A stretch of 64,000 bases of DNA from an uncultured Holophagales bacterium (GTDB taxonomy: Bacteria > Acidobacteriota > Thermoanaerobaculia > Multivoradales > UBA5704), in NCBI GenBank assembly GCA_963842525.1, contig CAWJGT010000014.1, positions 128,001 through 192,000 on the forward strand, read 5' to 3'. The position numbers were made by a program, and so were the translations under genes. Below are positions 13,203 to 28,827 of the stretch, piece by piece (positions within the stretch are counted from its first letter, which is position 1; every line of letters begins with the position of its first letter). Under the pieces are notes generated by a model. The model had not been told where the DNA came from. It saw only the letters and a program-made list of their open reading frames with translations, and ran no database searches.

Positions 13203-13357
13203 GGGCCCTCACCCCCGGCCCCTCTCCCATCCGCACTCCCCAACCACCGGGAGAGGGGAGAAAATCGTTCAAGCCTGTTTTCGATCTCCTTCTTTCCCCC
13301 CTCTCCCGGGCGGGAGTGAGTGCGGATGGGAGAGGGGGGCCAGGGGGGTGAGGGCCC
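13203..13357. repeat. REP-like palindromic element, family A (CCCTCACCCC..CCCCTCTCCC / GGGAGAGGGG..GGGGTGAGGG)
   Basis: Long nested inverted repeat; related copies at about 16930, 17954, 18487, 20355, 21007 and 49583. Confidence 0.8.
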
Positions 13358-13364
13358 CGGAAAT

Positions 13365-13393
13365 TTGACTCTCTCCGTCAACGTTTGTACGAT
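13365..13393 (+). promoter_or_regulatory. sigma70-type promoter of DEAD-box helicase
   Basis: TTGACT-17 nt-TACGAT, about 140 bp upstream of ATG 13531. Confidence 0.6.
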
Positions 13394-13530
13394 ACGGCCG
13401 TGGTTGGCTGCCGCTCCCGCTTGAGGCATCTCACCATTCCGCTACTTTTTTCGCCCAGGATCGCCGCGTTTTTCGGAAGGGAGCGCCGGGACGGCAGATC
13501 TCCTTCGGGCATTGCTTACAAGCGAGATCC

Positions 13531-14757
13531 ATGCAGCCTCTTGCAATTCCCCAACATCCAGTAGAGACCACTCAACAGAACTTCGAAACCCTCGGGCTGA
13601 GCGCGCCGATCCTCGAGGCGGTGTACCGCGTCGGCTTCGTCCATCCGACGCCGATCCAGGCCCGCGTGATCCCCGTCGCCCTGTCCGGCCGTGACCTGAT
13701 CGGCCTGGCGGAGACCGGCTCGGGCAAGACCGCGGCCTTCTGCCTGCCTCTCGCCGAGCGACTGGCCGAAAACCGGGGCGGCGTCCGCGCCCTGATCCTT
13801 TCCCCCACCCGCGAGATCGCTCTCCAGACCCAGGCCTTCCTCGACGTCTTCGGCGAGGACCAGCAACTGCGCACCGTCTGCCTGATCGGCGGCGTCAAGA
13901 TGGGCCCGCAGATCCGCGGCCTCCAGTTGCGTCCCGACATCGTCGTGGCCACGCCCGGCCGCCTGCTCGACCATTACGAGCGCGGCACGCTGCGGCTCGA
14001 CCGCGTGCACTACCTGGTGCTCGACGAGGCGGACCACATGCTCGACATGGGGTTCCTGCCGCAGGTGATGCGCGTCCTGCGCGCGCTCCCCCGCGAGCGC
14101 CAGACCCTGATGTTCTCGGCCACCATGCCGGACCCGGTCGAGCGACTGGCCCAGCAGTACATGGTCAGCCCGCAGCGCATCGACATCCTGCCCGAAGGGG
14201 GCGCCGCCTCCGGGATCAGCCACCGCGTCTACATGGTGGGCCCGGACGACAAGAAGGCCTGCCTCCTCGCCCTCCTGCACCAGGAGCTCGGGAGCACCCT
14301 GGTCTTCATCCGCCGCAAGGTCGACGCCGAGTGGCTGACCGGAGTCCTGGAAAAGGAAGGCCATCCGGTCGAGCGCATTCACTCCAATCTTTCGCAGGGC
14401 GAGCGCACCCTGGCCCTCGACGGCTTCCGGGACGGCGAGCACCGCATCCTGGTGGCGACCGACATCGCGGCCCGCGGGATCGACGTGCCGCGAGTACGGC
14501 ACATCATCAACTTCGACATGCCCGAGACGGTCGAGGACTACATCCACCGCGCCGGCCGCACCGCCCGCGGCAGTGCGCACGGCATCGTCTCCACGATCGC
14601 CTCCTGGATGGACAAGCCAAGGGTGAAAGACATCGAGCAGACCCTGGGAGAGCCCCTCCCCCGCTGCACCGTCCCCGGCGTCGATCCCTACGTCGAGATG
14701 TCCCCCCGCCTGACCATGGGCGGCGGCAAGCGGAACATGCGGGTCAAAAGGCGGTAG
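13531..14757 (+). CDS. DEAD-box RNA helicase (RhlE-like)
   Basis: Q motif, AETGSGKT, PTRE, TPGRLLD, DEAD, SAT, ARGID, YIHRAGRTAR. Confidence 0.96.
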   Translation: MQPLAIPQHPVETTQQNFETLGLSAPILEAVYRVGFVHPTPIQARVIPVALSGRDLIGLAETGSGKTAAFCLPLAERLAENRGGVRALILSPTREIALQTQAFLDVFGEDQQLRTVCLIGGVKMGPQIRGLQLRPDIVVATPGRLLDHYERGTLRLDRVHYLVLDEADHMLDMGFLPQVMRVLRALPRERQTLMFSATMPDPVERLAQQYMVSPQRIDILPEGGAASGISHRVYMVGPDDKKACLLALLHQELGSTLVFIRRKVDAEWLTGVLEKEGHPVERIHSNLSQGERTLALDGFRDGEHRILVATDIAARGIDVPRVRHIINFDMPETVEDYIHRAGRTARGSAHGIVSTIASWMDKPRVKDIEQTLGEPLPRCTVPGVDPYVEMSPRLTMGGGKRNMRVKRR

Positions 14758-14905
14758 ATCCTGCCACCAAGGCCGTAGAGACGCCCTAGTCCACGACCAC
14801 TACCCTCACCGCTACCACTGCGGCCAGGGCGTCTCCAACCTCCCCGCAACCACAACGGCTCAATCCCGTCCCACCGGCGGGTGGTTTCGCCTTTTTTGAA
14901 TCCGC

Positions 14906-14933
14906 GTCCAACACGCCGCACCTGAACCGTGTC
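14906..14933 (+). promoter_or_regulatory. Putative ECF-sigma promoter GTCCAACA-N13-CCGTGTC (site A, CHAT-SAVED/sigma operon)
   Basis: Motif repeated 6 times with fixed spacing; here followed by RBS AGGAGG (14943) and ATG 14957. Confidence 0.7.
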
Positions 14934-14956
14934 ATTCAGGACAGGAGGTGCACAGG

Positions 14957-16906
14957 ATGGAATATCAGGACTTCACGATCGATGTACGCTCGGCCGAGGG
15001 GGGGCGATTCGAGGCCAGGGTGATCGACGCGCCGCTCGGCGGCAACCCCCGGGTGTTTTTCCCTCCTCCCCTCTCCCAGGAGGATCTGAAGACCCTGCAC
15101 GGGCTCTTCGACGGGTCGGGCAAGGAGGCGCCGGAGAAACCCTCGCCGAAAGCCCTGGCCCGCCAGATGGGGCAGCAGCTTCACACCGCTCTTTTTCGCG
15201 ACGGCGTGGCCGAGCTCTACCAGAAATGCCGGGCCACGCTCCTGAGCGACAAGAACACCGGGCTGCGGCTCCGGCTCAAATTCCAGCTCAAGGATACGGA
15301 GGCCGGCTACCTGGCTGCCCTCCCTTGGGAATGGCTGTGCGACCCCGCCTCCTGCGAGCTCCTGGCGACAGACCCGTGCACGCCCGTGGTGCGAGACATC
15401 GCCGTTCCCCGGCCCCAGGGGACTCTCGAAGTGGCAGGACCCCTGCGCGTCCTCGTCGTCGCCTCAGCCTCCAGCGACATGGGCCTCGACCTGGAGCAGG
15501 AGATCGAGCGGATGGCCGCGGCGCTCAAGCCTCTCGAAGAGTCCGGCAAGGTGAAGCTGGTCCGGCTCGCGACGGCTGACCCGAACGCTCTCCGCGAAGC
15601 CCTCAAGGACGACAAGATCCACGTCCTCCACTTCATGGGCCACGGCGGTTACGATCCCGAGTCCGGCAACGGCGCAGTCATCTTCGCGCAGGAGGGCGCG
15701 GGCAAGGACCAGGTCAGCGGAGAGCCGTTCGCCACCTATCTGAAGGAGCTTCCCAGCTTGCGCCTCGTGGTGCTCAACGCCTGCAAGACCGCGCGGTATG
15801 CCAGCCGGCGAGGCCCCTCGCTCAACCACGGCCTGGCCCCGGTCGTCCTGGAACGCACCCGGGTGCCCGCCGTGGTGGCGAACCAGTACACCATCTCCGA
15901 CACGGCCGCCATTGCCTTCAGCGAGACCTTCTACCGCCGCATCGCCAAGGGGGACCCGGTCGACGAGGCCCTCACCGAGGCACGGTTGCAGCTCTACCGG
16001 ACGAGTGCCGAATGGGCGACGCCGGTCCTCTTCCTCGCCGCACCGCACGGCAGGCTCTTCGCCCTGGGAGCGGCGCGCTCCGACAACGGACTCGTGCACC
16101 GTGAGAAAACCGAGATGATCCGCCTGGGAGTGCGGAGCTTCGATGGATTCGGCGGCGACATGAAGGCACGTAACGAGGCGGTCCTCGAGCTGGCCGGCTA
16201 TTTCGACGGCCGCTATATCAAGCGGAAGGAAGACTGGCAGGAGAAGATCTTCCCGGAGCTGCGAGCATTCCTCCTGAGATGGATCGATCCGCACCGGCCC
16301 CTGCTGCTCGATTTCGCCGCTCATTCCTCGATCGCTTTTGCTGCCGGCTGGGTCCTGGAGCCCAAGAGCGGCCTCGATGTGCGGGTATCACAACGCATCT
16401 CGGGAGAAGGGGTGCTCGATTGGCATCCCAAGGACGGCACGGAGCCGGACGGCTCTCTCTGGCTCGACCGGCCTGACATCGAGCTCGACCCCGAGGCTCC
16501 GGATGTGGCCCTGGCCCTCTCGGCGAGCCAGCCGGACGTGGCCGGCCACGTGCAGGACTTCGTCCAGCGCAAGAGCCTCTCGATCGGGCGGATCGTGGAC
16601 GCAACGGTTGCTCCCGAGCCCGGTCCCCACTCGGTACGCGGCGGAGCGCACGCCTTGGGCCTCGCCCAAGCGCTCCTCCCCCGCCTGCGGCCCAGGAAGC
16701 CTCACGAACGCAAGGGCCGCACCCACCTCTTCTGCGCCGCTCCCAATGCTCTCGTCTTCTACCTGGGACAGCTCGCGTCCTCGCTGGGGAGAGTCGTCCT
16801 CTACGAATTTGCCTTCCGTGCGGAGGATTCGTTCGGGCGGTATCAACAATCCATCGAGCTGCCACCACCCGGCGAAGCCTCTCAGATTCCAGGCGACGAC
16901 TGGTAA
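14957..16906 (+). CDS. CHAT (caspase-like) protease fused to C-terminal SAVED domain
   Basis: CHAT: LAALPWE, VLHFMGHG (His), VVLNAC (Cys), F..TFYRRI, EWATPVLF; SAVED: AHSSIAFAAGW, HLFCAAPNALVFYLGQ..VVLYEF. Confidence 0.88.
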   Translation: MEYQDFTIDVRSAEGGRFEARVIDAPLGGNPRVFFPPPLSQEDLKTLHGLFDGSGKEAPEKPSPKALARQMGQQLHTALFRDGVAELYQKCRATLLSDKNTGLRLRLKFQLKDTEAGYLAALPWEWLCDPASCELLATDPCTPVVRDIAVPRPQGTLEVAGPLRVLVVASASSDMGLDLEQEIERMAAALKPLEESGKVKLVRLATADPNALREALKDDKIHVLHFMGHGGYDPESGNGAVIFAQEGAGKDQVSGEPFATYLKELPSLRLVVLNACKTARYASRRGPSLNHGLAPVVLERTRVPAVVANQYTISDTAAIAFSETFYRRIAKGDPVDEALTEARLQLYRTSAEWATPVLFLAAPHGRLFALGAARSDNGLVHREKTEMIRLGVRSFDGFGGDMKARNEAVLELAGYFDGRYIKRKEDWQEKIFPELRAFLLRWIDPHRPLLLDFAAHSSIAFAAGWVLEPKSGLDVRVSQRISGEGVLDWHPKDGTEPDGSLWLDRPDIELDPEAPDVALALSASQPDVAGHVQDFVQRKSLSIGRIVDATVAPEPGPHSVRGGAHALGLAQALLPRLRPRKPHERKGRTHLFCAAPNALVFYLGQLASSLGRVVLYEFAFRAEDSFGRYQQSIELPPPGEASQIPGDDW

Positions 16907-17031
16907 TGCGCCGAGGCCCGATCAACGTTCCCCCTCTCCCGGCGGGGGATGGGCGGAAGATGGGAGAGGGGGCCAGGGGGTGAGGTCTCTCTCTGGCGGA
17001 AGGGAGGCTTCTGTGGAAAGCTACCTCCGGC

Positions 17032-17643
17032 ATGCCGCCGAACACAGCCTGTACCGAGGACGAGAAGATCCGAGCAGCCATCCGGGCCCTCCAGGCCGGG
17101 GCCGGCCCCGACGCCTTCGCGGCCGTCTTCCGGCGCTTCTACCGGCCGCTCTACAACTTCTTTTCCAATCGCCCCGTCCTGCGCCAGGAGGCCGACGACC
17201 TCACCCAGGTCACGTTGATCCGCGCCCTGCAGAACATCCTGCAATACCGTTGCGAAGCGAATTTCGAGGCATGGCTCCTGCGCATCGCGGAAAACGTCTG
17301 GAACAACACCGTCCGCGATCAGCTCGCGGTCAAGAGAGGTGCGCGCCTGACCACCCAGGAGCCGGAAGCCGACGACGGTCCGCAGCTCCCGGCCGGCAAA
17401 GCCCCCGGCCCCGAAGAGCTGGTCCTGGCGGAAGAGCGGACACGGGTGCTGCGGCAAGCGATCGACACCCTGCCGCCGGGGATGCGCACATGTACCGAGC
17501 TGCGCCTCTACGGAGACCTCGAATACCAGGAGATCGCCGAGGTCACGGGGATCGGCCTCAACAGTGTACGCTCTCAGCTCTTCGAGGCGCGAAAACGCCT
17601 CAGGCCCGTCCTGGAGGAGTATTTCCAGGACGCCACATTCTGA
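17032..17643 (+). CDS. ECF-type RNA polymerase sigma factor
   Basis: Region 2 EADDLTQVTL..FEAWLLRIAEN; region 4 LPPGMR..YQEIAEVTGIGLNSVRSQLFEARKRL. Confidence 0.93.
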   Translation: MPPNTACTEDEKIRAAIRALQAGAGPDAFAAVFRRFYRPLYNFFSNRPVLRQEADDLTQVTLIRALQNILQYRCEANFEAWLLRIAENVWNNTVRDQLAVKRGARLTTQEPEADDGPQLPAGKAPGPEELVLAEERTRVLRQAIDTLPPGMRTCTELRLYGDLEYQEIAEVTGIGLNSVRSQLFEARKRLRPVLEEYFQDATF

Positions 17644-17652
17644 GGGACCCGC

Positions 17653-18486
17653 GTGGGCGGACAGGAAGACTTCGCCAAGGCGCTCAAGGCCATCATGGCT
17701 GCGAAGCGTGAGGAGCTGGGAGAGCCCCCGACCCCGGAGGAGCTGCTCGCCTATCGGGACGGCCGGCTGGACCCGGGCGGCAGGGAACGGATGGAGGCCC
17801 GGATCGCCGTCCACCCCGACGCCGCCCGCGCCCTGGCCGACCTCGCCGCCTTCCCCGCCGTGGAGCCGGCGCCCGGCACGCCGGAGCTGACCGACGAGGA
17901 CCTCGACGTGCGTTGGCAGGCGTTCCGCCAGCGCGTGGCGGCGCTCCCGCCGGCCCCTCACCCCCCTGCCCCCCTCTCCCATCGCACTCCCACCGACCGG
18001 GAGAGGGGGGGAAAAACCGAAGGCCGGCGCCGGCGGCTCTTCGCTCCGCGGCTGGCGGCAGCAGCCGTGCTGGCCCTGGCGGCCGGCTGGGCCGGCGGCT
18101 TCCTGACCGGGCGGGCCTCGCACGACCGCCCCGGCTCGGCCGTCAACATCGACATCGTCGAGCTCACCCCGGAAAAAGAAGGCGGCGACCGCTCGCCGGC
18201 CGCCGCGGTGGAGATGCCGGCCGAAGAGCTGGTGCTGATCCTGGGTGCGCCAGAGGAAGGCGGCTTCGCTAACTACGAAGCCCGGATCGTGGACGCGCAA
18301 GGCTCCCCCGTCTGGTCCCGAACGGGCCTCCACCCCACGCCTCTGGGGACTTTTCACCTCTCCTTCCAGCGGGGCGCTCTGCAGCCGGGGACCTATGGCA
18401 TCCTCCTCTTCGGCCAGGAGGGGAAGCGCAGGAAGCCGGTCGCCACCTATGAGCTGCGTCTCCAGGAGGGACCGGCAAGCCGGTGA
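17653..18486 (+). CDS. Membrane-bound anti-sigma factor (degenerate zf-HC2-like N-terminus, one TM helix, extracytoplasmic beta domain)
   Basis: PTPEELLAYRDGRL..ERMEARI; TM LAAAAVLALAAGWAGGFL; directly follows the sigma gene. Confidence 0.75.
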   Translation: MGGQEDFAKALKAIMAAKREELGEPPTPEELLAYRDGRLDPGGRERMEARIAVHPDAARALADLAAFPAVEPAPGTPELTDEDLDVRWQAFRQRVAALPPAPHPPAPLSHRTPTDRERGGKTEGRRRRLFAPRLAAAAVLALAAGWAGGFLTGRASHDRPGSAVNIDIVELTPEKEGGDRSPAAAVEMPAEELVLILGAPEEGGFANYEARIVDAQGSPVWSRTGLHPTPLGTFHLSFQRGALQPGTYGILLFGQEGKRRKPVATYELRLQEGPASR

Positions 18487-18688
18487 CCTCACCCCCTGGC
18501 CCCCTCTCCCATCTCCCTTCCACCCCCCGCCGGGAGAGGGGGGACGTAGCGGAGGCGTTCGTGGCGAGCCCGATGTCAGCACGTTTCGAGGCGCAGGACC
18601 CCGACCGTGCCTCAGGTGCCTCAACCGCGTCCCCCCTCTCCCGGGGAAAGGGCGGGAGGGAGACGGGAGAGGGGGACAGGGGGTGAGG
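18487..18688. repeat. REP-like palindromic element, family A
   Basis: CCTCACCCCCTGGCCCCCTCTCCC...GGGAGAGGGGGACAGGGGGTGAGG between anti-sigma and TPR-CHAT genes. Confidence 0.8.
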
Positions 18689-21646
18689 ACCTCCGCTGCC
18701 GCCCTCCTCCTCCTCCTCTCCTGCGGCCACCCGCCCGCTGAAACGGTCAACCTCACCCCCGGCGCCGTCCACCCCCGGACCCTCACCGGCCGCGGCCCTT
18801 ATCTCTTCCAATTTCAGCTTCCCGCCGATCGTTTCCTCCGCCTGGACATCGAGCAGCGCGGCGTGGACGTGGTCGTCCTATTGCGCGATCCCGCCGGCCG
18901 TCTCCTCTACGAGGTGGACAGCCCCAACGGCACCGAGCGCGCCGAGCCGGTCCTCGCGGTCACCCCGGTCTCCGGCGAGCACTTGTTGATCGTCGAGCCG
19001 CTCCACCCCGAGGCACGAGGCGATTTCGCCCTGGTCGTCCGCGAGGTCCGGCCGGCCACCCAGGGGGACCGGGTGCGGGCCGCCGCCGCCACCGCGTTCG
19101 CCCGCGCCGAGCGGCGCCGGCTGGAGGGCGACCTGGACCGCGCGGGAATCGACTACCGCAAGGCGCTGCCTCTCCTTGAGGCTTGCGGCGAGCGACGGCA
19201 GGCGGCCGAGGCGCAATGGCACCTCGGCGAAGCCCTCCTCGAAGCCGCCGAGCTGCGGCAGGCGGCGGCGGTCCTGGAACAGGCCGCGGCGCGGTTCCGC
19301 GCCCTGGGCGACCGTCCCGGCGAGGCCCACGCTCTCAACGACCTCGGCGCCGCCTGGAGGCTCCTCGGCGACCCCGAGCCGGCGCTGGCCGCGTACCAAC
19401 GCGCGCTGCACCTTTTTCGCGCCGCGGGGCTCCGCCGGGACGAGGCCTCGACGCTCAACAACATCGGCCTGCTCTTCAAGGGCACCGGCGACCTCCAGGG
19501 CGCACTCAATCACTTCGAGGCGGCTCTCGCCCTCTGGCGTCCTCTCCAGGCGAAGTCGTCCGAAGCGGCGACCCTGGAAAACCTGGGAAGCCTCCACACC
19601 CTGATCGGACAGGACGACGAGGCCCTGGGCTTCCTCCAGGAGGCCCTCCGCCTCCGCGCAGGCGAAAAAGACCTGCGCAAGCGGGCCTCGGTCCTGATCG
19701 AGCTCGGCTGGTCACAATATTGGGCCGGCCATCCGGAGCTGGCCCTGGACCACTACCGCGATGCCATCGCGCTGGCCGAGCGCGCGGGGGACCGCCTGCG
19801 CCAGGCGGGCGCCTGGGACCGCCGCGGATCGGCGCTGCGAGCGCTCCACCGCTACGACGAAGCCGCCGCGTCCTATGCGCGAGCCCTGGCTATGAGCCGC
19901 GCCGCGGGAAGCCGGCTCCACGAGGGGCATATCCTGGCCAACCTCGGAGAGCTCGACCTCGAGACGGGCGCCGTCGAGCGCGGCCGGCAGCGCCTGCAGA
20001 GGGCCGCCGACTTCCTGACCGCGAGCGGCGATCCCAACGCCGTGATTTCCGCCCGCGTCAGCCTCGGCCGAGCCGAACGGCGCCTGGGCCGTTTCGGCCC
20101 GGCGCGCAAGCAGGCCGAAACCGCCATCCGCCTCGTCGAGAGCCTGCGCACCGGCCTCCGCGGCCCCATGAGCCGCGGCAATTTCCTGGCGACCCGCATC
20201 GGCGCCTACGAAGAGCTGGCAACCCTCCTGATGCAGCTCGACCGCACCCGCGAAGCACTGGAGGTCGCGGAGCGCGCCCGCGCCCGCAATCTCCTGGAGG
20301 ACATCCGGGAGGAAAACAGAGAGTGTGTCGAAAGCGCGTCGCGAGCCCGGGAAACCCTCACCCCCGACCCCTCTCCCAACCGCACTCCCGACCTCCGGGA
20401 GAGGGGAGCCCCCACCCAAAAGCCTTTTCCGCAGTTTCGCTTCCCCCCTCTCCCGGTGGCCAGGGAGTGCGGATGGGAGAGGGGGGCCAGGGGGGTGAGG
20501 GCCCTGACCGCCAACGAGATCCAGGCCCTGGCCGACGACGGCACCCTCCTCGTCGTCTATCTCCTGGCCGAGCCCGCGAGCTTCGCCTGGACCGTCCACC
20601 GCAAGACCGTGGCCTCCCATACCCTCGCCGGGAGAGAGCGCATCGAAAAGCTCGCCCGCCGGGTGATCCACGCCATGCCCCACAGCCACGAAGTCGCTGG
20701 CCAGGGCACCGCCACGCGAGCAGCGCAGGAGCTTGCGGACGCCATCCTCGCGCCCCTCGGCGAGCGCCTGGCCGGCCGGCAACGCCTCGTGATCCTCGCC
20801 GACGGAGCCCTGCACCTCGTCCCCTTCGCCGCCCTGCCTGGGAGCACCGGCGAGCCGCTCCTGGCCGATCACGAGATCGTAATGGTCCCCTCCGCCACGG
20901 TGCTCCAGGCACAGCGCCGCCGCTTCGCCGGACGGCCCCCCGCACCGGAGCTGGCCGCCATCCTGGCCGATCCAATCTTCTCGCCGACGGACGAACGCCT
21001 CCAGTTCCCCCTCTCCCGGGGGAAGGGGGGGCGATGGGAGAGGGGGCCAGGGGGTGAGGGGCCAGCCCTCGAACGCCTGCCCTACACCGCGACCGAGGCC
21101 GAAGACATCGTCCGCCTCATCCCTCGCGGACAGGCACTCCTGGCCCTCGGACCCGCCGCAAGCCGGGACCTCGTCCTGGCCGGCGGCCTGCGGCGCTATC
21201 GCATCCTCCATTTCGCGACCCACGGCCTGCTGCACCCGGTCCTGCCCGAACGCTCGGGCATCGTCCTCTCGCTGTTCGATGAGAAAGGAAAACGCCTTGA
21301 CGGATTCCTCTCTGCGCCGGACGTCGCGGCGTTGGACCTCCCCGCCGAGACGGTGGTCCTGAGCGCCTGCCAGACCGGCCTCGGCCGCGAGATGCGGGGC
21401 GAAGGCCTGGTCGGCCTCACTCATGCCTTTTTCCGCGCCGGAGCCCGCCGCGTCGTCGTGAGCACCTGGAAGGTCCGCGACCGCGCCACGGCCGAGCTCA
21501 TGGCCCGCTTCTACCGCCACCTCCTCGGCGACGGCCTGCCGCCCGCCGCCGCGCTGCGGGCTGCCCAGCTTTCCATCCGCAACGAACCGCAGTGGCACGC
21601 CCCCTACTTCTGGGCCGGCTTCTCCCTCCAGGGCGATTGGCAATAA
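18683..21646 (+). CDS. TPR-CHAT protease, probable lipoprotein
   Basis: GTG start, MRTSAAALLLLLSC lipobox-like; beta domain (EQRGVDV..DSPNG), multiple TPRs; CHAT motifs DGALHLVPF, ILHFATHG, VVLSACQTG, WKVRD, PYFWAGF. Confidence 0.88.
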   Translation: MRTSAAALLLLLSCGHPPAETVNLTPGAVHPRTLTGRGPYLFQFQLPADRFLRLDIEQRGVDVVVLLRDPAGRLLYEVDSPNGTERAEPVLAVTPVSGEHLLIVEPLHPEARGDFALVVREVRPATQGDRVRAAAATAFARAERRRLEGDLDRAGIDYRKALPLLEACGERRQAAEAQWHLGEALLEAAELRQAAAVLEQAAARFRALGDRPGEAHALNDLGAAWRLLGDPEPALAAYQRALHLFRAAGLRRDEASTLNNIGLLFKGTGDLQGALNHFEAALALWRPLQAKSSEAATLENLGSLHTLIGQDDEALGFLQEALRLRAGEKDLRKRASVLIELGWSQYWAGHPELALDHYRDAIALAERAGDRLRQAGAWDRRGSALRALHRYDEAAASYARALAMSRAAGSRLHEGHILANLGELDLETGAVERGRQRLQRAADFLTASGDPNAVISARVSLGRAERRLGRFGPARKQAETAIRLVESLRTGLRGPMSRGNFLATRIGAYEELATLLMQLDRTREALEVAERARARNLLEDIREENRECVESASRARETLTPDPSPNRTPDLRERGAPTQKPFPQFRFPPLPVARECGWERGARGVRALTANEIQALADDGTLLVVYLLAEPASFAWTVHRKTVASHTLAGRERIEKLARRVIHAMPHSHEVAGQGTATRAAQELADAILAPLGERLAGRQRLVILADGALHLVPFAALPGSTGEPLLADHEIVMVPSATVLQAQRRRFAGRPPAPELAAILADPIFSPTDERLQFPLSRGKGGRWERGPGGEGPALERLPYTATEAEDIVRLIPRGQALLALGPAASRDLVLAGGLRRYRILHFATHGLLHPVLPERSGIVLSLFDEKGKRLDGFLSAPDVAALDLPAETVVLSACQTGLGREMRGEGLVGLTHAFFRAGARRVVVSTWKVRDRATAELMARFYRHLLGDGLPPAAALRAAQLSIRNEPQWHAPYFWAGFSLQGDWQ

Positions 21647-21651
21647 AGACC

Positions 21652-21679
21652 GTCCAACAAATCTCCGGCAACCCGTGTC
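21652..21679 (+). promoter_or_regulatory. Putative ECF promoter, site B
   Basis: GTCCAACA-aatctccggcaac-CCGTGTC upstream of the 72-aa ORF. Confidence 0.7.
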
Positions 21680-21742
21680 GGAGCAGGTAGAAGCAGAAAC
21701 CACCGGCCCCTGCCGGGCCGGAGGGATCGAAAGGAGCCCCCC

Positions 21743-21961
21743 ATGCCGACCCATCCCATCCTCTCGACAGGCCCCTTCCTCGCCGACCCTGAGCCCATTG
21801 ATGAACAGACCGGTGGGGGACCCAAAGTGGGCCGCGACGAGCCGATCCAACCGGAAGAGGACGTGGTGCGTATCGGTGAGGAAAACCCCGGCGGGCCACA
21901 GACAGGTGGAACCGTCAAGACCGGTCGCACAAAGCCGATCCAACCTGAAACGGAGGACTGA
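21743..21961 (+). CDS. 72-aa acidic peptide with duplicated QTGGxxKxGRxxPIQPE motif
   Basis: RBS GAAAGGAG; own promoter motif; internal repeat conserved at the protein level. Confidence 0.7.
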   Translation: MPTHPILSTGPFLADPEPIDEQTGGGPKVGRDEPIQPEEDVVRIGEENPGGPQTGGTVKTGRTKPIQPETED

Positions 21962-21968
21962 AAGCAGC

Positions 21969-22055
21969 CCCCCTGGGAGCGCGGGCGTCTCGCCCGCCCG
22001 GAGCCGAGCCGTCATATCGAGCCGCCAGCGGGCGGGACGCCCGCGCTCCCAGGGG
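21969..22055. repeat. REP-like inverted repeat, family B (GGGAGCGCGGGCGTC.CGCCCGC)
   Basis: Inverted pair; second pair at 33639-33751. Confidence 0.75.
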
Positions 22056-22081
22056 CCGCTGCCAACCACTTTGACCGGGCC

Positions 22082-22109
22082 GTCCAACAAATTCCGGACA
22101 GTCCGTGTC
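22082..22109 (+). promoter_or_regulatory. Putative ECF promoter, site C (cas operon)
   Basis: GTCCAACA-aattccggacagt-CCGTGTC ending 64 bp upstream of the cas6 ATG. Confidence 0.7.
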
Positions 22110-22173
22110 GTAGGGAATAGATGGCTCGGCTCCCGCGGAGGCGGGACGGCCGGAAAGGACTGAGATCGAGACC

Positions 22174-23082
22174 ATGCAAGGACTCCAGCCCACCTCTCCC
22201 CTTCCCACCATCCCCCATCTCCGCCTGGAGGTGACCCTCCGGGCGGAGGAGCCGGCGACGCTCCCTGCCTTCCACGGCTCGATGCTGCGCGGCGCCTTTG
22301 GGCACGCTCTGCGCCGGTCGGTCTGTTCCATGGGGCCGGCGCAGGCGTGCGAGACCTGCACGTTGCGCCGGCCCTGCATCTACACGCGGATTTTCGAATC
22401 GTTCGTCGAAGGCGAGCCGCCGCCGTTCCTGCGCGGGATCGATCAGGCGGTCCGTCCCTATCTCTTCGAGCCCAAAGGCGGAGCGGGCCGGCTGGAGCCC
22501 GGCGAGCCCTTGCGCTTCGACCTGCTGCTCTTCGGCCAGGCCGTGGACCTCCAGGCGTACGCCGTTCTGGCGATCCGCCGCATGGCGCAGTCGGGGCTCG
22601 GCGCCGGCCGTGCCCGCTTCCGGCTCGATCACATCGAAATGCGGGAATCGCCGGCCCTCCAGGACGCTCCGCTCCCGGACGGGCCGGTCACCCTCCGTTT
22701 CGTCACACCCCTGCGCATCAAGATCCGCGACCAGCTCGCCGATCGATTCCGATTCCGGGACCTCGCCTTTCACATGCTGCGGCGCACGCTGGAGCTCGCC
22801 CACACCCACGTCCCCGGCGCGCCGGTCGACTGGAGCTTCCAGCCCCTGCTCCGGAAGGCCGACGCCGTCCAGGCCACCGCCGCCAGCCTCCGCTGGCACG
22901 ACTGGGAGCGCTGGAGCCAGCGCCAGCAGACCCGCATGAAGCTCGGCGGCGTCGTGGGCACCCTGACGCTCGACGGCGACCTCTCACCTTTTACATCCCT
23001 GCTGCGCACCGCCGAGGTGATCCATGTCGGCAAGGGGACCACGTTCGGGCTGGGGAAGATGAGGATCGAGGCAGCGGCATGA
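22174..23082 (+). CDS. cas6: CRISPR pre-crRNA endoribonuclease Cas6
   Basis: GSMLRGAFGHALR, Cys cluster CETC..CIY, FVTPLRI, WERWSQRQ..MKLGG, C-terminal G-loop HVGKGTTFGLG. Confidence 0.93.
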   Translation: MQGLQPTSPLPTIPHLRLEVTLRAEEPATLPAFHGSMLRGAFGHALRRSVCSMGPAQACETCTLRRPCIYTRIFESFVEGEPPPFLRGIDQAVRPYLFEPKGGAGRLEPGEPLRFDLLLFGQAVDLQAYAVLAIRRMAQSGLGAGRARFRLDHIEMRESPALQDAPLPDGPVTLRFVTPLRIKIRDQLADRFRFRDLAFHMLRRTLELAHTHVPGAPVDWSFQPLLRKADAVQATAASLRWHDWERWSQRQQTRMKLGGVVGTLTLDGDLSPFTSLLRTAEVIHVGKGTTFGLGKMRIEAAA

Positions 23083-24848
23083 ATCACGAGAAATCCGAAA
23101 CCAGAGAATCCAGCAGCCGCCATGTGGCGGATGTGGCCAAGCGGGCACTATCGCCTCACTTCAGCGATGGTGAGGTCCCGCCCGCGCTCCTCGAAGCGGT
23201 CGCCGCCGGCCAGGGCAATCGCGAAGAGGTGCGCCGCATCACCGAGAAGGCCTGCGGCTCCGGCAAGCCTTTCGATCTGGTGCTCTTCGACACAGACCGG
23301 ATCAGCGACTATGTCTTCGAGTCGAGCCGGCCACCGGTCATTGCCGGAGCCTCCAAAATCCTTGACGATCTCAACCAGTCGATCGGCGACGAGTATCGGG
23401 ACAGCACGATCTATTCCGGCGGCGGCGAGGGCATCCTGCTGGTCCTGAGAGGAGACGGCGAACGGATCTGCTCCGAGATCGAGGAGCGCTTCCGCACGAA
23501 GACCGATGGCGCCCTGACGGTCACCACGGGCTGGCTGGAGATCTCGCCTCACGATTTCATCGCGACGACACCGCGAGGAGAGGCGGACAACGGAGCCCGC
23601 CTTGTCTCGGGCACGCAGGCGGTCCTCTCGCGCTTGCGCGATCTGGTCCGAGAGAAGAAGGATGGCCGGTCCGACTTCCGCTCTCCCGTGCACGCCGAGA
23701 GCGAGCGCTGTGCCTCCTGCCGGGACCGGAAAGCCGACTCCATTCCGATCAAGTTCTATCGGGATGAGGTCGGGCGTATCTGCGAGCCTTGTTGGGTCCG
23801 GTGGGGTGTGGGCAAGGAGCTCATCGAGGGGTGGTCTTTCGACGAGCTGGCGGAAAAGTACCAGAAGGCCCTCGGATCGGAAGGCGCCAAGACGCGCTAT
23901 CTCGGCTTCGTCTACGCCGACGGCAACTCGATGGGCGCGCTCTTCGGTCGCCTCGAATCTCTGTCCGACCTGCGCTTCCTGAGCCATTCGGTCCGCGACG
24001 CTTTCGCCATGACGAGGGGGCAGGTAAAGGAAGAGGTGCAGCGGCTGGTCCCGGTGCCAGGAGGCTTTCCTCTCCTCAGCTATCTCGGCGGCGGTGACGA
24101 GGCGATCTGGATCCTTCCCGCCGCGCTGGCCGTTCACATCACGGAAAAGCTGCCGCTGTGGGTCGAGGCTGCGTCACAGCGCATCCCCGATTTTCTGACG
24201 GTTCTGAAGCATCATGGAGTTTCCCGCGTGACGCTGGGCACCGGCCTGGTGATCTGCGATCTGGGCTACCCGGTGCGCTATCAGTACCGGCTCGCGAAGG
24301 ACCTCCAGAAACGCGCCAAGGCGATGTTCTACGCCCGGCAGACAGCCGATGTAACCTCTTCGCTCGACTTCGAGGTCCTGACGGACTCTTCGCCACTGAG
24401 CGATGAGCTCGGCGCGGTCCGCGAGCTCGCGTACAAGACCGCCGACTCCGACTTCCTGCGTACCTGCCGCCCCTACACGGAGCGCGGTTTCCAGGAGCTC
24501 CTCAACCGGATGCGCCAGGCCCGCGCACCCCGCAACGGGAACGGCAAGGTGGTGCGTAAGCCCATCGCCAATTCCCAGCTTTACGGATTGCAGAGCGGCG
24601 CCGCAGAAGGCAAGGCGGTGTTCCTCAACTATCTCCGCTATCAGCTCGCCCGCAAGCCCGCCGGCCCCACCATTCAAGACTGGATGGACGCCTTCAATCA
24701 CAAGTGGACCGATCCTCAGGACGTCGAAAGATTTTTCGTGGACGCCGCGGAGGGCGGCAAGACCGGCACGTGGATCCCGGACGGCCTGCAGCTCGCGCCG
24801 TTTCTCGATCAGCTCCGCAAGCTGGAAGACGCGAAGGAGCGCCGCTGA
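23079..24848 (+). CDS. cas10: Cas10 large subunit (no HD domain, GGDE palm)
   Basis: FDTDRISDYVF, YSGGGEG, Zn motif CASC..CEPC, YADGNSMG, YLGGGDE; ATGA overlap with cas6. Confidence 0.9.
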   Translation: MNHEKSETRESSSRHVADVAKRALSPHFSDGEVPPALLEAVAAGQGNREEVRRITEKACGSGKPFDLVLFDTDRISDYVFESSRPPVIAGASKILDDLNQSIGDEYRDSTIYSGGGEGILLVLRGDGERICSEIEERFRTKTDGALTVTTGWLEISPHDFIATTPRGEADNGARLVSGTQAVLSRLRDLVREKKDGRSDFRSPVHAESERCASCRDRKADSIPIKFYRDEVGRICEPCWVRWGVGKELIEGWSFDELAEKYQKALGSEGAKTRYLGFVYADGNSMGALFGRLESLSDLRFLSHSVRDAFAMTRGQVKEEVQRLVPVPGGFPLLSYLGGGDEAIWILPAALAVHITEKLPLWVEAASQRIPDFLTVLKHHGVSRVTLGTGLVICDLGYPVRYQYRLAKDLQKRAKAMFYARQTADVTSSLDFEVLTDSSPLSDELGAVRELAYKTADSDFLRTCRPYTERGFQELLNRMRQARAPRNGNGKVVRKPIANSQLYGLQSGAAEGKAVFLNYLRYQLARKPAGPTIQDWMDAFNHKWTDPQDVERFFVDAAEGGKTGTWIPDGLQLAPFLDQLRKLEDAKERR

Positions 24849-26700
24849 TGCCAAAGCTCGAAATCACTCTTCACGGGCATCTGCTCGTCGCCGGAGGCCA
24901 AGCCGCGGCTCTCGGCGTCGATCTCGCCACGGCCCAGCGCTTCGACGAGAAGGGCGAGCTGGTGCCCTACATCCCCGCCACCGCCCTGCGCGGTGCGGTC
25001 CGCCTTCAGCTCGAATCACTCCTGGCCGGCACGAATCATCCGGACATCGGTCCCTATCCGCGTGATGTGGAAGGCGAAACCCGCGAGGGCTTCGATACTC
25101 CGATCGCCCGTCTCTTCGGCTACTCCGGCAAGAAGGGTGCAAGAAACGGCGCCAGGGAGGGAAGCCTCCGCTTTTCGGATGCCCTGCCGAAAGATCCCAA
25201 GAGTGCCGCCCAGGCGCTGGGCGTACGGCCTGGGCTCGAGATCAATGATTTCACCTCGACTGCCGAGGAGCAGAAGCTCTTCTTCCGCGAGCTGGTTGAA
25301 ACCTCGGCCGAGCCGCTCGTTTTCACTGCCGATCTCGATCTCAACAAGCAGGTCTCTAAAGAAGATCGAGACAGCTTGCAAGCCGCGGTCGAGAGCACGG
25401 ACTCGATCGGCGCCGGCAAGGCCAAGGGCGGCGGCTTCGTCTCGATCCGCTGGATCGACGAGACCGGGAAACAGCCAGAGGACAAGCAGGAAGAGAATGC
25501 GCCTCCTTCAGGTTTCCTAGGGGACCCGTCAGCCGCCACGCGGGTACGGTTGCTTCTCACGCTGACCGAGCCGGCCCATTTCGGAGACGGCGGCCCGCAG
25601 GGCAACCATCACGGTAGCCGCACTTTCATCCCGGGTGCAACCGTCCGCGGCGCCATCGCCTGGGCACTCCTGCGCAACGGGGTCGCCCCCCAAGACCCAG
25701 CCTTCCAGAGCCTTTTTATGAAGGCCGGGAGCTTCGGCGACGCCCTCCCCACTCTCGATCCGGACGAGGAGCCCGTGATCTATCCCGCTACAGCGCGGAA
25801 ACGCCGAGGGGGCGAGGAAGAGATCAAGGACATCCTTGTCACGGAGGCTCGCCCGCCAACAGATCAACGAGCAGCCCGACGGCGTCTTTCTCCGATCGGA
25901 CGACGGCGATGCCCGCTTCGATCCTGTCCCGGCTCGCCCCGACCCGGGCCTTATCCGGCGCCTGCGCACCCGGGTCTCCATCGACCGCCACACCGGCACC
26001 GCAGCCGATGGCCGCCTCTTCACCATCGAACAGGTCGAGCCCTGGCTAGCCCCGAAGAATCACCAGAAACCGCGCAGGACCACGTTCGTCTGCCGCGTCG
26101 AAAACCTGGATCAGTCCGCCGCGGAGCTGCTTGCCTTGGCCGCGGACCTGCCGATCCTGATCGGCGCGGGTCGCAACCATGGGATGGGGCGCGCCCTCCT
26201 GCAGGTACACTTCGAGGCTGAAGAAACCATCGAGAATGCGGAGCTGCGAGTCCTGAAGCTCACAGGCCTCGTTCGCCAGGAAGCCGTACGCCTCGCCCGC
26301 CATGCCGGCCTCCCCCATCCGGAGGACGCGGCAAACCACGGCCAAGCCGTTCTCGCATTGCTTGCGCTATCGGACTTCGTACCGTCCCACCCAGAGGCGG
26401 CGCATCCGCTGGCCGAGCTCGCGGAGCCTGGCTTACAGGATATCCATCCACTCCGTCGCTTCCTTAACCCGGGACAGGTCGGCGGCTACAACCAGCTCGT
26501 CGAGGGGGGTGCCCTCAAGGACCTCGCCCCGTCCGTCGGAGCGGGAAGCGTCTTCGTCTATCGCATTCAACGGCAGGGCCTGACACCGCTGCTTGACCGG
26601 CTCCTCCCGCGGCTGCGCCGGGGAGTGGGCCGTGACTGCGCCAGCGGCTGCGGCCGGTTCGGTCTGTTCGAGCCATTTTTTCCAAGGAGAAGAAGGATGA
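24848..26700 (+). CDS. csx10: Csx10-like Cas7-Cas5 RAMP fusion (frameshift near 25846)
   Basis: PYIPATALRGAVR, IGAGKAKGGG, FIPGATVRGAIA, RVSIDRHTGTAADGRLF, IGAGRNHGMG, GAGSVFVY, GCGRF; an apparent extra G splits the frames. Confidence 0.8.
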
Positions 26701-27089
26701 GCGCTGAGCCTGAAGTTGGAAGCAAATCCTGGTTGGTCGGCAGAGCCGAGAATATCCTCGGGAACCAAGTGCCGAGAAATCAGGCATCTCAGTTGCGGAA
26801 CCTTGTTCAGATCACACAGAAGGAATCCGAAGTGCCCGTCCTTGCGAACTTCATCCGCTATCAGGCTGGCCGGAAAGCTACGGGCGGATTCTGGCGCCCG
26901 ATCCACAAGCAGGTCATCGAAGTCCTCCAGAAGATCGAGGAGAAGTTCCCTGCCGAGGACGAGCGCAAGGCCGCCATTCAGAATTTCTTCGGTTACATGG
27001 TACGGCACTATGTCTATCTCGAGGGTGCCGGCGAGAGAGGCTCAACATCATCCAAGCCGAAAGGAGGAGCGCCTCATGGACGCAACTGA
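26697..27089 (+). CDS. Probable Cas11-like small subunit
   Basis: Helical 130 aa with SQLRNLV, NFIRYQAGR, FFGYMVR; RBS AAGGAG upstream; currently in frame with the 3' half of csx10. Confidence 0.65.
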   Translation: MSAEPEVGSKSWLVGRAENILGNQVPRNQASQLRNLVQITQKESEVPVLANFIRYQAGRKATGGFWRPIHKQVIEVLQKIEEKFPAEDERKAAIQNFFGYMVRHYVYLEGAGERGSTSSKPKGGAPHGRN

Positions 27090-27909
27090 GTTTCGCCTCC
27101 GGCATCATGCCGTGGTCGATGAGATCGTGCTCTTCGACTATCGACTCACATGCCGCACTGGCCTCCACATCGGCGCCGGCAAGCGTGCAGATCTTGTTGA
27201 GAGTGACTTGCCGGTGATGCGGGATGCGGCCGGCCGACCCTTCGTACCGGGCTCTTCCCTGAGAGGCGTCCTTCGCGCCGGTGCCGAAGCCCTCTCCAAA
27301 TCGTTGGCGCTCGACTCCGCAAAGCCGGCCGCGCAGGCCGAGCAGCTTCCAGGTGTGCCACGTGAGCTCTCCGAGCTCTGGCACGAGCTCGATCTCGTTC
27401 AGCGCATCTTCGGCACCGTCATCCCGGGAACGAAGAAGGCGCTCGCCTCCAGGCTTCAAATCTCGGACGCCGTATGCCGCTCTCCAATTATCACCGAGGT
27501 ACGCGATGGCGTCGGCATCTCCCGGGAAACACGAACTGCCAGCCACGATACCGGCGCAAAGTTCGACATAGAGGTGGTGCCGGCCGGGACTACCTTCGAG
27601 GGACGCATCCGCTTCAAGAACCCGGCAGCTTTCGAGCTGGGGCTCCTCGCCCAAGGCCTTTGGATGCTTGACGAGGGGTTGCTCCTTCTGGGCGGCAAGT
27701 CAGCGCGTGGGCTCGGCTGGGTGGAAGTGACGACCAGCACACCGAGCAAGCGCTCTGCTCAGGAGATCCTCCGTGCAGGCAAAAGCACAGCGCCTGACAC
27801 CCCTCGCAGCTTCGGTCCCGTTCCCGAGAAGCTCGCGCAGTATCTGACCTGCCTGCAACAACTCGCGGATACCACCGCGCAGGGGCCTCACCGGCCTCAG
27901 GATAACTGA
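27076..27909 (+). CDS. Cas7-group RAMP (Csm3/Csx7-like)
   Basis: TGLHIGAG, SDLPV (position of the Csm3 catalytic Asp), PFVPGSSLRGVLR, RDGVGISR, LGGKSARGLG. Confidence 0.88.
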   Translation: MDATEFRLRHHAVVDEIVLFDYRLTCRTGLHIGAGKRADLVESDLPVMRDAAGRPFVPGSSLRGVLRAGAEALSKSLALDSAKPAAQAEQLPGVPRELSELWHELDLVQRIFGTVIPGTKKALASRLQISDAVCRSPIITEVRDGVGISRETRTASHDTGAKFDIEVVPAGTTFEGRIRFKNPAAFELGLLAQGLWMLDEGLLLLGGKSARGLGWVEVTTSTPSKRSAQEILRAGKSTAPDTPRSFGPVPEKLAQYLTCLQQLADTTAQGPHRPQDN

Positions 27910-27911
27910 TC

Positions 27912-28823
27912 ATGTTTAAAACTCTCCAAAACACCGCAAAGTTCGAGGTCACTCTCGTTCCCGATGGCCCCATCCTCGTCCGAGCCCAGTCGGTCGGGCT
28001 TGACCCGGGGGTGGCAGACATGGAGTTCCAGCGCACCGCCTGGAAAGGCCGTAACACGGTCTTTCTCGCGGGGTCTGGCTTGAAGGGAGTCCTCCGCTCC
28101 CATTGCGAGCGCCTGCTCCGGTCGGCCGACAGGTTTGCCTGTGATCCGACGCAGACGAAAAACGATCCAACGCTCTGCGGTATGAGGAAACCGCACGATC
28201 CGTACCCCGAGGGTTACGCGCTTCCCTATCCGCACAAGGACCAGTGCGCTGCCTGCTTCACGTTCGGCTCTCTCCGGCTCGCGGGACGGTTCCGGGTAGC
28301 CGATGCCTATCCCGTGCAAGCCCTGGAGGACGAGACAAATCACACGGAAGTACGTACCGGCGTTGGGATCAATCGGCAGTCCCAGGCAGCCCAGGAAAAG
28401 GTCCTCTATGACACAGAAGTCGTAGTGTCTGGCGGTTTCCGCGCCCTGATCTCTGGCGAGAACTACTCCTTATGGCAGCTCGGCCTGATTCTGAACGCGC
28501 TCCAGGACTTGGACCAGGGCCTGGTGCGTATCGGGGGAGGCAAGGCCCGTGGCATGGGAAACGTCCGCCTCAAGGACTGGCGGATCGAATTGGGCTTCGT
28601 GAACGGATCGACCGGGAAGCTCACGGGAGCCCTACCCGAGTCGCCGGCCAGGAATCCCTATAGTCTTCCTGGCGACGACATCCTCGCCGCCTTGCCTGAT
28701 GGTCAAGAGGCTCGGCAGGGGCTCTTCCGAAAGATTGTCTACGACAGCGATGGAGCCGTAGAGGTCCTGGCCAATCGGCTGTCGGAGGGGCCGTTGGCCT
28801 CGTATCTCAAGGGAAAGGGGTGA
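27912..28823 (+). CDS. Cas7-group RAMP
   Basis: FLAGSGLKGVLRSHCE, CAACFTFGS, RTGVGINR, IGGGKARGMG. Confidence 0.88.
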   Translation: MFKTLQNTAKFEVTLVPDGPILVRAQSVGLDPGVADMEFQRTAWKGRNTVFLAGSGLKGVLRSHCERLLRSADRFACDPTQTKNDPTLCGMRKPHDPYPEGYALPYPHKDQCAACFTFGSLRLAGRFRVADAYPVQALEDETNHTEVRTGVGINRQSQAAQEKVLYDTEVVVSGGFRALISGENYSLWQLGLILNALQDLDQGLVRIGGGKARGMGNVRLKDWRIELGFVNGSTGKLTGALPESPARNPYSLPGDDILAALPDGQEARQGLFRKIVYDSDGAVEVLANRLSEGPLASYLKGKG

Positions 28824-28827
28824 CAGT

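Follow-up and report, generated by a model that had tools for sequence, protein, structure and literature searches.

A CHAT-SAVED protein encoded with a sigma, anti-sigma and TPR-CHAT cassette at a type III CRISPR locus of an uncultured Holophagales bacterium

The closest precedent for the locus considered here is the DdvS/DdvA island of Myxococcus, with the CalpL/T/S system second. In excerpts of the work on the former (Bernal-Bernal et al. 2018, PMC6061681; Bernal-Bernal et al. 2024, PMC11506125, PDB 8ROT), the M. xanthus sigma factor DdvS drives two cyclic-oligonucleotide-based antiphage signalling systems (CBASS) and a type III-B CRISPR (clustered regularly interspaced short palindromic repeats) system from GTAA-N16-CGT promoters (PMC6061681; PMC11506125). 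The first operon of the island encodes a CD-NTase together with an effector that lies beside ddvS-ddvA and has CHAT at its N-terminus and SAVED at its C-terminus (PMC11506125, Fig. 1 legend), and for DdvA a CHAT-mediated site-1 cleavage followed by RseP is proposed, its trigger being reported as unknown (PMC11506125). The SAVED-Lon protease CalpL (Rouillon et al. 2023, as summarised in an excerpt of PMC11229360) cuts the anti-sigma CalpT and releases the sigma factor on cyclic oligoadenylate (cOA). In Haliangium ochraceum, according to excerpts of Steens et al. 2024 (10.1101/2023.06.23.546230), SAVED-CHAT activates PCaspase, and the second protease cuts a sigma factor; Hoikkala et al. counted no more than three type III loci with SAVED-CHAT and seven with TIR-SAVED. 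Here we describe CHAT-SAVED, a protein of 649 residues encoded at 14957–16906 (+) in a stretch of 64,000 nucleotides (nt; hereafter the window) from an uncultured Holophagales bacterium (contig CAWJGT010000014.1 of assembly GCA_963842525.1, positions 128,001 to 192,000), and identified by Pfam, PADLOC, PDB alignment and a structure model. The conclusion that it is a cytoplasmic, nucleotide-sensing CHAT protease, part of a defence cassette under sigma control and supplied here by Cas10, is well supported. Three things appear to be new: the split form of the conserved cassette, the use of this cassette with type III as well as CBASS sensors, and a motif that ties the cas operon and the arrays to the cassette sigma.

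Like the DdvS/DdvA island as excerpted above, the window combines a sigma factor of the extracytoplasmic function (ECF) type, a single-pass anti-sigma of the zinc type and a presumably periplasmic TPR-CHAT protein, and places an N-CHAT/C-SAVED effector beside the sigma operon, a likeness that is one of description. Where the island has sigma-dependent AAC...CGT-type promoters, before its defence operons and the sigma operon, the window has a conserved motif of this type as a candidate promoter. In fold searches, DdvA ranks with the best matches of the CHAT-SAVED model and also with those of the TPR-CHAT model. In DdvA, however, TPR-CHAT is fused to the anti-sigma, whereas the window has separate genes for a 277-residue anti-sigma and a TPR-CHAT lipoprotein, and the anti-sigma clade of the window, unlike DdvA, lacks the zinc-binding Cys. 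The promoter motif differs as well (GTCCAACA...CGTGTC versus GTAA-N16-CGT for DdvS), the M. xanthus CHAT-SAVED protein has its own CD-NTase whereas none is seen in the host genome, and here, in a phylum other than that of Myxococcus, the sigma operon begins with CHAT-SAVED.

The CalpL/T/S system, as far as the summary goes, shares with the window a SAVED-fused protease that is linked to type III and has an anti-sigma and an ECF sigma gene beside it, and its model of cOA-triggered sigma release is the one that we propose below; its protease is Lon instead of CHAT, it has no third, periplasmic protease, and its ligand is cyclic tetra-adenylate (cA4). The Haliangium cluster, in the excerpts at hand, resembles the window in its adjoining type III system, sigma gene, second caspase-like protease and CBASS ancestry. 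Its partner protease is the C14 peptidase PCaspase, whereas that of the window is the TPR-CHAT lipoprotein, and no C14 peptidase was found among the window ORFs (open reading frames) scanned; the window also lacks PCi and PCk of Haliangium and has a membrane anti-sigma.

The CHAT-SAVED protein and its domain order

The ORF of CHAT-SAVED spans 14948–16906 (+), and its start is likely the ATG at 14957, which is preceded by AGGAGG at about 14944–14949. A first-pass annotation had read the product as an N-terminal CHAT with HFMGHG and LNAC, a C-terminal SAVED domain and no signal peptide, and each of these points is borne out. Pfam places CHAT at residues 74–351 (E 1.4e-27, 97 bits against a cut-off of 24) and SAVED at 452–635 (E 9.9e-24, 84.5 bits against 26.2), the Cap4-type SAVED models of PADLOC span residues 375–636 (E 3.8e-63), and its SAVED_CHAT model covers just the CHAT part. 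The full layout is a small N-terminal beta domain (1 to ~60), CHAT (74–351), a linker (374–384) and SAVED (~385–636); the protease domain is CHAT, and Pfam finds no Lon domain in the protein. The AlphaFold model (mean predicted local distance difference test score, pLDDT, 85.3) shows a disordered linker at 374–384 and a two-lobed C-terminal half, and it is the polar N-terminus, modelled as beta strands 2–12 and 18–24 at pLDDT ~94, that argues for a protein without a signal peptide.

The active site is intact. H229 lies within HFMGHG and C276 within LNAC, each invariant in 32 of 32 aligned homologues, and a phmmer alignment with the chain of the Haliangium SAVED-CHAT filament (PDB 8TL0) sets HVLHFMGHG opposite HILHFIGHG and LNAC opposite LNAC. 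H229 and C276 thereby pair with chain residues H355 and C402, which at a constant offset of 20 are H375 and C422 of the Haliangium dead mutant, and we therefore take H229/C276 as the catalytic dyad. The two enzymes thus share a SAVED domain fused to a CHAT domain with a His/Cys dyad, although the resemblance is confined to the latter: the CHAT half matches 8TL0 in a PDB sequence search (E 1e-7), whereas the two SAVED domains have no detectable sequence similarity and residues 380–629 find E. cloacae Cap4 as their best PDB match (phmmer E 1e-23). Cap4 (E. cloacae 7YIA/7YIB, A. baumannii 6VM6/6WAN) is the best match of the SAVED half in both sequence and fold and, according to the PDB titles, a cyclic-trinucleotide receptor; its effector domain is a nuclease and it belongs to CBASS only, whereas the window protein is a protease. 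For the CHAT-SAVED model as a whole, the closest PDB folds are E. cloacae Cap4 (Foldseek E 1.7e-16), the Craspase TPR-CHAT, 8TL0 and DdvA.

Since CHAT occupies chain residues 282–454 of 496 in 8TL0, and is thus C-terminal there, the order CHAT-SAVED is reversed with respect to the SAVED-CHAT order of the Haliangium enzyme, as had been noticed at first pass. The order is not unprecedented, however, being already in print for the Myxococcus xanthus effector (PMC11506125, in the excerpt cited above).

A protein search with CHAT-SAVED gave 215 matches at E<=0.001 among 8000 scored candidates; among the matches listed, both Pfam domains occur in 119 of 120, lengths are mostly ~650 residues, and the named homologues come from Thermoanaerobaculia or Acidobacteriota metagenome bins. 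For the wider locus, one genome per species was scanned and the best 80 of 569 stretches were kept, which correspond to 79 distinct loci. Twenty-three of these (L001–L023) reach into the SAVED half and are the basis of all counts out of 23 given here, whereas L024–L079 match residues 1 to ~370 alone. The host genome holds 28 matches to the CHAT head, just one of them with SAVED.

A conserved cassette and its candidate promoter motif

CHAT-SAVED had been pictured at first as an isolated gene, hidden from the cas genes by four non-cas genes, and this picture does not survive the comparison of related loci: an ECF sigma, an anti-sigma and a TPR-CHAT protease are conserved partners of CHAT-SAVED, and cas6 directly adjoins CHAT-SAVED in 5 loci. 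With cassette content scored by tblastn and ORF reading, 19 of the 23 loci have the sigma gene on the 3' or 5' side of CHAT-SAVED, and 18 have TPR-CHAT, L006 breaking off behind its anti-sigma gene. Each of the 18 sigma loci read or matched by tblastn has an anti-sigma built in the same way (in L001 as a tblastn match alone). The sigma module is missing in L017, L018 and L020, each with a flank of <=580 bp on the relevant side (L018 ends 135 bp downstream). By comparison, the GGDEF-EAL and DEAD-box genes upstream and a 162-codon ORF before cas6 are not conserved in related loci. A terminator-like hairpin with a T-run at 14876–14897 (+), 3' of the unrelated DEAD-box helicase gene, may separate the cassette from the upstream genes; it is weak evidence, since the terminator scan that found it returned a total at chance level (5 found against 5.2 expected). 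We found the four-gene cassette described nowhere in the literature searched, in which supplementary tables were outside the scope, and the name 'CHAT-SAVED' went unmatched there.

The sigma factor (203 residues, 17032–17643, +) has regions 2 and 4 (Pfam Sigma70_r2 and r4_2), and its PDB relatives are RpoE, SigH, SigE and SigW. Eight nucleotides 5' of its start codon lies TTCTGTGGAAAGCTA (17009–17023, +), with CTGGCG ~10 nt further upstream; the element occurs once within the window and is kept there and in 13 loci. It was considered as a sigma-54 or ECF promoter element and rejected, as its spacing fits neither.

The third gene (17653–18486, +) encodes a 277-residue protein recognised by architecture and distant homologues, with a helical N-terminal part, a Pro-rich linker, a transmembrane helix at ~131–155 and a beta-rich C-terminal part. 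It has no Pfam match itself, and the Cys is missing from the window copy; distant homologues in L019 and L021, however, match Pfam zf-HC2 above cut-off, and HxxxCxxC is present in the anti-sigmas of L015 and L016 and in unlinked paralogues. These homologues identify it as a single-pass anti-sigma derived from the zinc-associated anti-sigma (ZAS) family, in a clade without the Cys ligands, and we read it as a cytoplasmic ZAS-derived domain joined to a periplasmic beta domain. CalpT, by contrast, is reportedly soluble, whereas the window anti-sigma spans the membrane. Of 401 genomes taken as a sample of the phylum, 38 contain anti-sigma relatives.

The TPR-CHAT protease (987 residues, 18683–21646, +; Pfam, N-terminus reading and model) most likely starts at the GTG at 18683, which would give the lipoprotein-type N-terminus MRTSAAALLLLLSC. 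Behind this signal follow a beta-sandwich, ~18 TPR helices and a CHAT domain with the dyad H847/C896, both residues of which are conserved in 16 of 16 sequences. In 15 of 17 other loci the N-terminus likewise has a hydrophobic stretch closed by a lipobox-like Cys, so that TPR-CHAT should be an exported lipoprotein. Its predicted structure (pLDDT 85.5; predicted template-modelling score, pTM, 0.77) matches best Csx29 (top, E 1e-15), DdvA and separases; phmmer against the PDB returned TPR proteins alone, DdvA not being among the matches at E<=0.001, and the link between TPR-CHAT and DdvA is therefore one of fold and architecture. With Craspase (Cas7-11, Csx29 TPR-CHAT, Csx30, RpoE), whose TPR-CHAT acts on a sigma-factor-binding protein, the window shares a CRISPR-linked TPR-CHAT, but Csx29 is a cytoplasmic protein that is switched on when it binds the effector complex directly, not by a nucleotide, whereas the window protein has an export signal. 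At L028, L037 and L073, fusions of a CHAT head to an FGE-sulfatase-like domain adjoin divergently oriented TPR-CHAT homologues (33–36% identical to that of the window), and no sigma match was found at these three loci. The host genome itself carries three to four more sigma/anti-sigma/TPR-CHAT triads without CHAT-SAVED (L114, at C3:244000–262000, L115, L116 and L117); at L114 a CHAT-head paralogue with a different C-terminal region comes after the triad.

A GC-rich palindromic element, CCTCTCCC-N-GGGAGAGG, has 10 matches in the window (13221–21043 and 49599) against 0 expected, and similar elements lie in intergenic regions of L001 and L008–L010. It sits in frame inside cassette genes four times (anti-sigma linker, 17973–18006; TPR-CHAT, 20370–20482 and 21010–21043), and the inserts in TPR-CHAT take the place of a helical segment that is otherwise conserved, and come out as disordered loops in the model (pLDDT <50).

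The four genes and the CRISPR system are linked by a sequence motif. Twelve loci share, upstream of CHAT-SAVED, GTCCAACA, a ~15-nt spacer and CGTGTC, an AAC...CGT layout of the kind typical for ECF promoters. Within the window, TCCAAC-N14-18-GTGTC has 6 matches, all on the plus strand, against 0.09 expected, and none of 100 shuffles reached 6; a search of the whole genome with the stricter form GTCCAACA-N12-16-CGTGTC gives 9 matches, of which 6 fall in the window, and 0 with the reversed control. The six sites of the motif scan are as follows. P1 (14907–14933; TCCAACA-N-CCGTGTC) lies 24 nt before the CHAT-SAVED start codon, P2 (21653–21679) directly 3' of the TPR-CHAT stop codon and P3 (22083–22109) 65 nt before cas6; P4 (31873–31899) precedes the first repeat of CRISPR array 1 by 388 nt, and P5 (35248–35274) and P6 (38568–38594) precede arrays 2 and 3, respectively, by 409 nt, the identity of P6 with P5 indicating a duplicated leader. 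Among the related loci, 28 matches fall in 12 loci: the motif precedes CHAT-SAVED by 26–77 nt in 10 other loci, cas6 in L001, L006, L008 and L010, cas10 in L011 and L012 and the CBASS operon of L007, points divergently at the Cas10/Cmr2 operon in L002–L005, and has a copy directly after TPR-CHAT in L002, L007, L008, L010 and L011. Neither the promoter motif at the paralogous triads of the host genome nor any sigma-70 promoter in a scan of 14500–23200 (0 sites) was found. On this evidence the cassette sigma probably, if not securely, drives the defence locus, that is, its own operon, the cas6-cas10 operon and the three CRISPR arrays.

Behind P2 lies an ORF at 21743–21961 (+) for 72 residues of low complexity, Gly/Pro-rich and acidic, with ...GRxxPIQPE... 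twice; it may not be a gene, and L011 has a 74-residue low-complexity ORF at the same position. Outside the locus the motif matches at C3:978886, C12:86236 (−) and C22:91059, and the ORFs that follow have no Pfam match or, slightly further on, are zapA and an RNase Y gene; these sites may mark additional regulon members.

The CRISPR locus and the probable source of the nucleotide

Downstream of the cassette, on the plus strand, lie cas6 (22174–23082; Pfam CRISPR_Cas6, E 4.7e-17, and NCBIfam cas_cas6) and cas10 (23142–24848; Cas10 models of Pfam and PADLOC), which encodes 568 residues from the ATG at 23142. This Cas10 lacks the HD domain and has GGDE in its second palm domain, where its nearest orthologues bear GGDE or GGDD. 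Five RAMP genes, Csx10-like and Csx7-like, follow at 24704–29766 (+; limits are those of mechanical ORFs, the true starts lying later) and probably form a type III-D-like effector complex. The annotation had named Cas10 as the only visible cyclase and had seen no CD-NTase in the window, and both statements extend to the genome: we found no CD-NTase in the window and 0 matches to SMODS (PF18144) in the whole 9.95-Mb genome (96% complete), and thus no cyclase of the kind that marks a CBASS effector in either operon or genome, whereas a single Cas10-like match is present. Cas10 is the sole recognisable oligonucleotide cyclase of this genome, and the combination of a GGDE Cas10 in the locus with a SAVED sensor in the effector is that of a type III ancillary effector. 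A third SAVED match in the genome, on contig C20, was considered as a hidden CBASS and rejected: it is a marginal, partial match within a Schlafen/HATPase protein, and its neighbourhood holds no cyclase.

In the family at large, 18 of the 23 loci have cas genes or arrays no further than 10 kb from CHAT-SAVED, which upholds the type III neighbourhood of a presumed CRISPR-linked cOA protease; CD-NTases, however, are neighbours in 4 (L007, L011, L014 and L023; three of them also with cas genes), so that the family is not exclusive to CRISPR. Fifteen loci have cas genes or arrays and no CD-NTase within reach, and at L013, L019, L020 and L021, two of which end early, neither was seen. The loci span three large-subunit lineages, namely the window's type, a type 27% identical to it, and Cmr2 with Cmr3. 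L007 has a HORMA/AAA CBASS and a Cap4-like SAVED effector of 502 residues upstream and Cmr genes downstream, L011 a CD-NTase and ThiF/E1 followed by Cas10, L014 CBASS alone with ThiF/E1-type partners, and L023 Cas10 together with a HORMA/CD-NTase pair; HORMA-type CBASS makes cyclic tri-adenylate (cAAA). In a FastTree phylogeny of 26 sequences, L007 falls, with support of 0.98, within a clade formed by CRISPR-only loci, and L014 is basal in the main clade. Synteny and the tree position of L007 together suggest that the four-gene unit stayed constant while the nucleotide-making system was exchanged.

The cas operon ends in a second SAVED effector of the locus that the annotation had not mentioned, TIR-SAVED (30469–31728, +; Pfam TIR_2 and SAVED). 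Its SAVED domain aligns weakly with that of CHAT-SAVED (E 0.003, 51 residues), and a full-length relative was found in none of the 23 loci; in L010 a looser cut-off brings up a short match, at 35%, on the other strand. Three arrays follow on the plus strand, with 17 (32287–33534), 29 (35683–37880) and 14 (39003–40070) repeats of 37 nt, in total 60 near-perfect repeats. Between arrays 1 and 2 is a reverse-transcriptase ORF (33676–34491, +; RVT_1, E 1.5e-15), which could be a remnant of a reverse-transcriptase-linked adaptation module or of a group II intron, and between arrays 2 and 3 a 63-bp tandem repeat unrelated to the CRISPR repeat (37910–38421; 8.1 copies, 96% matches).

Proposed mechanism and competing explanations

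It is highly probable, in our judgement, that CHAT-SAVED is a cyclic-nucleotide-activated protease belonging to the cassette, and the cOA-responsive protease suggested at first pass is a reasonable reading. What such a protease does is a closer call. The best reading, which we advance tentatively and at somewhat short of an even chance, is that of a cOA-activated protease in a sigma-controlled defence regulon with anti-sigma cleavage as positive feedback. The HD-less Cas10 would make cOA once the type III complex recognises target RNA, binding of cOA to SAVED would switch CHAT-SAVED on, and the activated protein would oligomerise and cut the anti-sigma in its cytoplasmic part, or else the complex of sigma and anti-sigma; the sigma thus freed would let a first CRISPR hit amplify both the CRISPR system and CHAT-SAVED expression. 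The periplasmic TPR-CHAT would supply a second, outside input to the same anti-sigma, as proposed for DdvA. As the substrate we favour, at less than even odds, the cytoplasmic part of the anti-sigma, on account of its constant linkage to CHAT-SAVED, the place of CHAT-SAVED in the operon and the precedent of CalpL. A cyclic trinucleotide is the probable ligand, given that SAVED is nearest to Cap4 and that L007 pairs CHAT-SAVED with a Cap4-like effector in one CBASS. A complex prediction of sigma, anti-sigma residues 1–125 and the CHAT head (1–370) scored 0.00 against a mark of 0.32 and is counted neither way.

The main rival holds that CHAT-SAVED is a terminal effector that cuts host or phage proteins or a pro-toxin and so brings about abortive infection or dormancy, while the triad merely times transcription of the island, as DdvS/DdvA does in Myxococcus, and is not acted on. 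We consider this unlikely, yet several findings speak for it, and those on L022, the triad and the CHAT head also weigh against anti-sigma cleavage. At L022, whose sister is L018, CHAT-SAVED has an array on one side and a Cmr operon on the other, and 10 kb of sequence in either direction contain no sigma module, so that the protease can exist without its proposed substrate. Conversely, the triad stands alone in the host genome and in the phylum, which makes it an autonomous regulator. The CHAT head is widely reused as an effector domain (in ten of the loci L024–L079, residues 1–368 are fused to FGE-sulfatase, TPR, AAA_16, FHA or unannotated C-termini), as expected of a general effector domain; the excerpt of PMC11506125 describes the M. 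xanthus relative as an effector of CBASS, and the Haliangium PCaspase cuts many proteins (10.1101/2023.06.23.546230, in part). A cassette-specific cleavage motif was looked for in the CHAT-SAVED-linked anti-sigmas and not found; the segment FPxVEP...SDEE after the anti-sigma domain, which was considered, also occurs in paralogues unlinked to CHAT-SAVED and was rejected as such a motif on that ground. Further reservations concern the regulatory side: the motif is defined as a promoter by its letters only, P4–P6 lie in duplicated array leaders and are not independent, and, if CHAT-SAVED expression needs the sigma factor, the loop needs a basal leak or another first trigger. The ligand, oligomerisation, substrate and promoter function are ones that we infer, and binding and cleavage by CHAT-SAVED are predictions. 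What a terminal effector leaves unexplained is that CHAT-SAVED and the triad are kept together in 19 of 23 loci despite swapped cyclases and effectors, and that CHAT-SAVED takes the first place, behind a sigma-type promoter, in the sigma operon.

A protease cascade, in which CHAT-SAVED activates TPR-CHAT by cleavage, as Haliangium SAVED-CHAT does PCaspase, and TPR-CHAT then does the damage, seems to us improbable. The cassette does mirror the Haliangium locus in having two caspase-like proteases with a sigma gene between them, and the CHAT-head/FGE-sulfatase proteins adjoin TPR-CHAT homologues at three loci, but the lipoprotein-type signal, in the window as in most other loci, would put mature TPR-CHAT across the membrane from the cytoplasmic CHAT-SAVED. 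Slightly less probable still is that Cas10 does not drive the system at all, SAVED answering instead the nucleotide of a divergent CD-NTase missed by PF18144, or of the GGDEF-EAL protein two genes upstream, with CRISPR proximity reflecting shared regulation. The relatives that adjoin CD-NTases, the completeness of the genome (96%) and the use of a single Pfam model for CD-NTases leave some room for this; against it stand the absence of SMODS matches from the genome, a third SAVED match without a cyclase nearby, the lack of any related locus that conserves the GGDEF-EAL and helicase genes, and the 15 loci with cas genes or arrays and no CD-NTase within reach. That the palindromic inserts, which number ten against none expected, fall four times within module genes and displace a conserved helical segment of TPR-CHAT, have disabled the module in this genome even if the family works is very improbable, as all four genes keep an open reading frame, neither dyad is broken, the remainder of TPR-CHAT folds well, CHAT-SAVED is free of inserts and the repeats of the arrays are near-perfect.

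The trigger of DdvS/DdvA-type control of CRISPR/CBASS islands is an open question according to the excerpt of PMC11506125, and type III signalling into transcription is known just for CalpL/T/S. The cassette, with a sharp motif before the cas genes and every array, makes feedback from cOA to sigma directly testable, and it constitutes one effector/regulator unit common to three type III lineages and two CBASS types (HORMA and E1). If the protease is a terminal effector only, it is a second, differently built CHAT/SAVED enzyme to set beside the Haliangium filament. In the most far-reaching form of the feedback model, which we rate as unlikely, the anti-sigma would be a two-sided proteolytic switch, cut outside by TPR-CHAT on an envelope or phage signal and inside by CHAT-SAVED on a CRISPR or CBASS signal; either cut would free sigma for the cas operon, all arrays and the switch itself, and the cassette would be portable between type III-B, type III-D-like and CBASS sensors. 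If this is true, the first target RNA would turn a near-silent type III system fully on, as a self-amplifying form of adaptive immunity.

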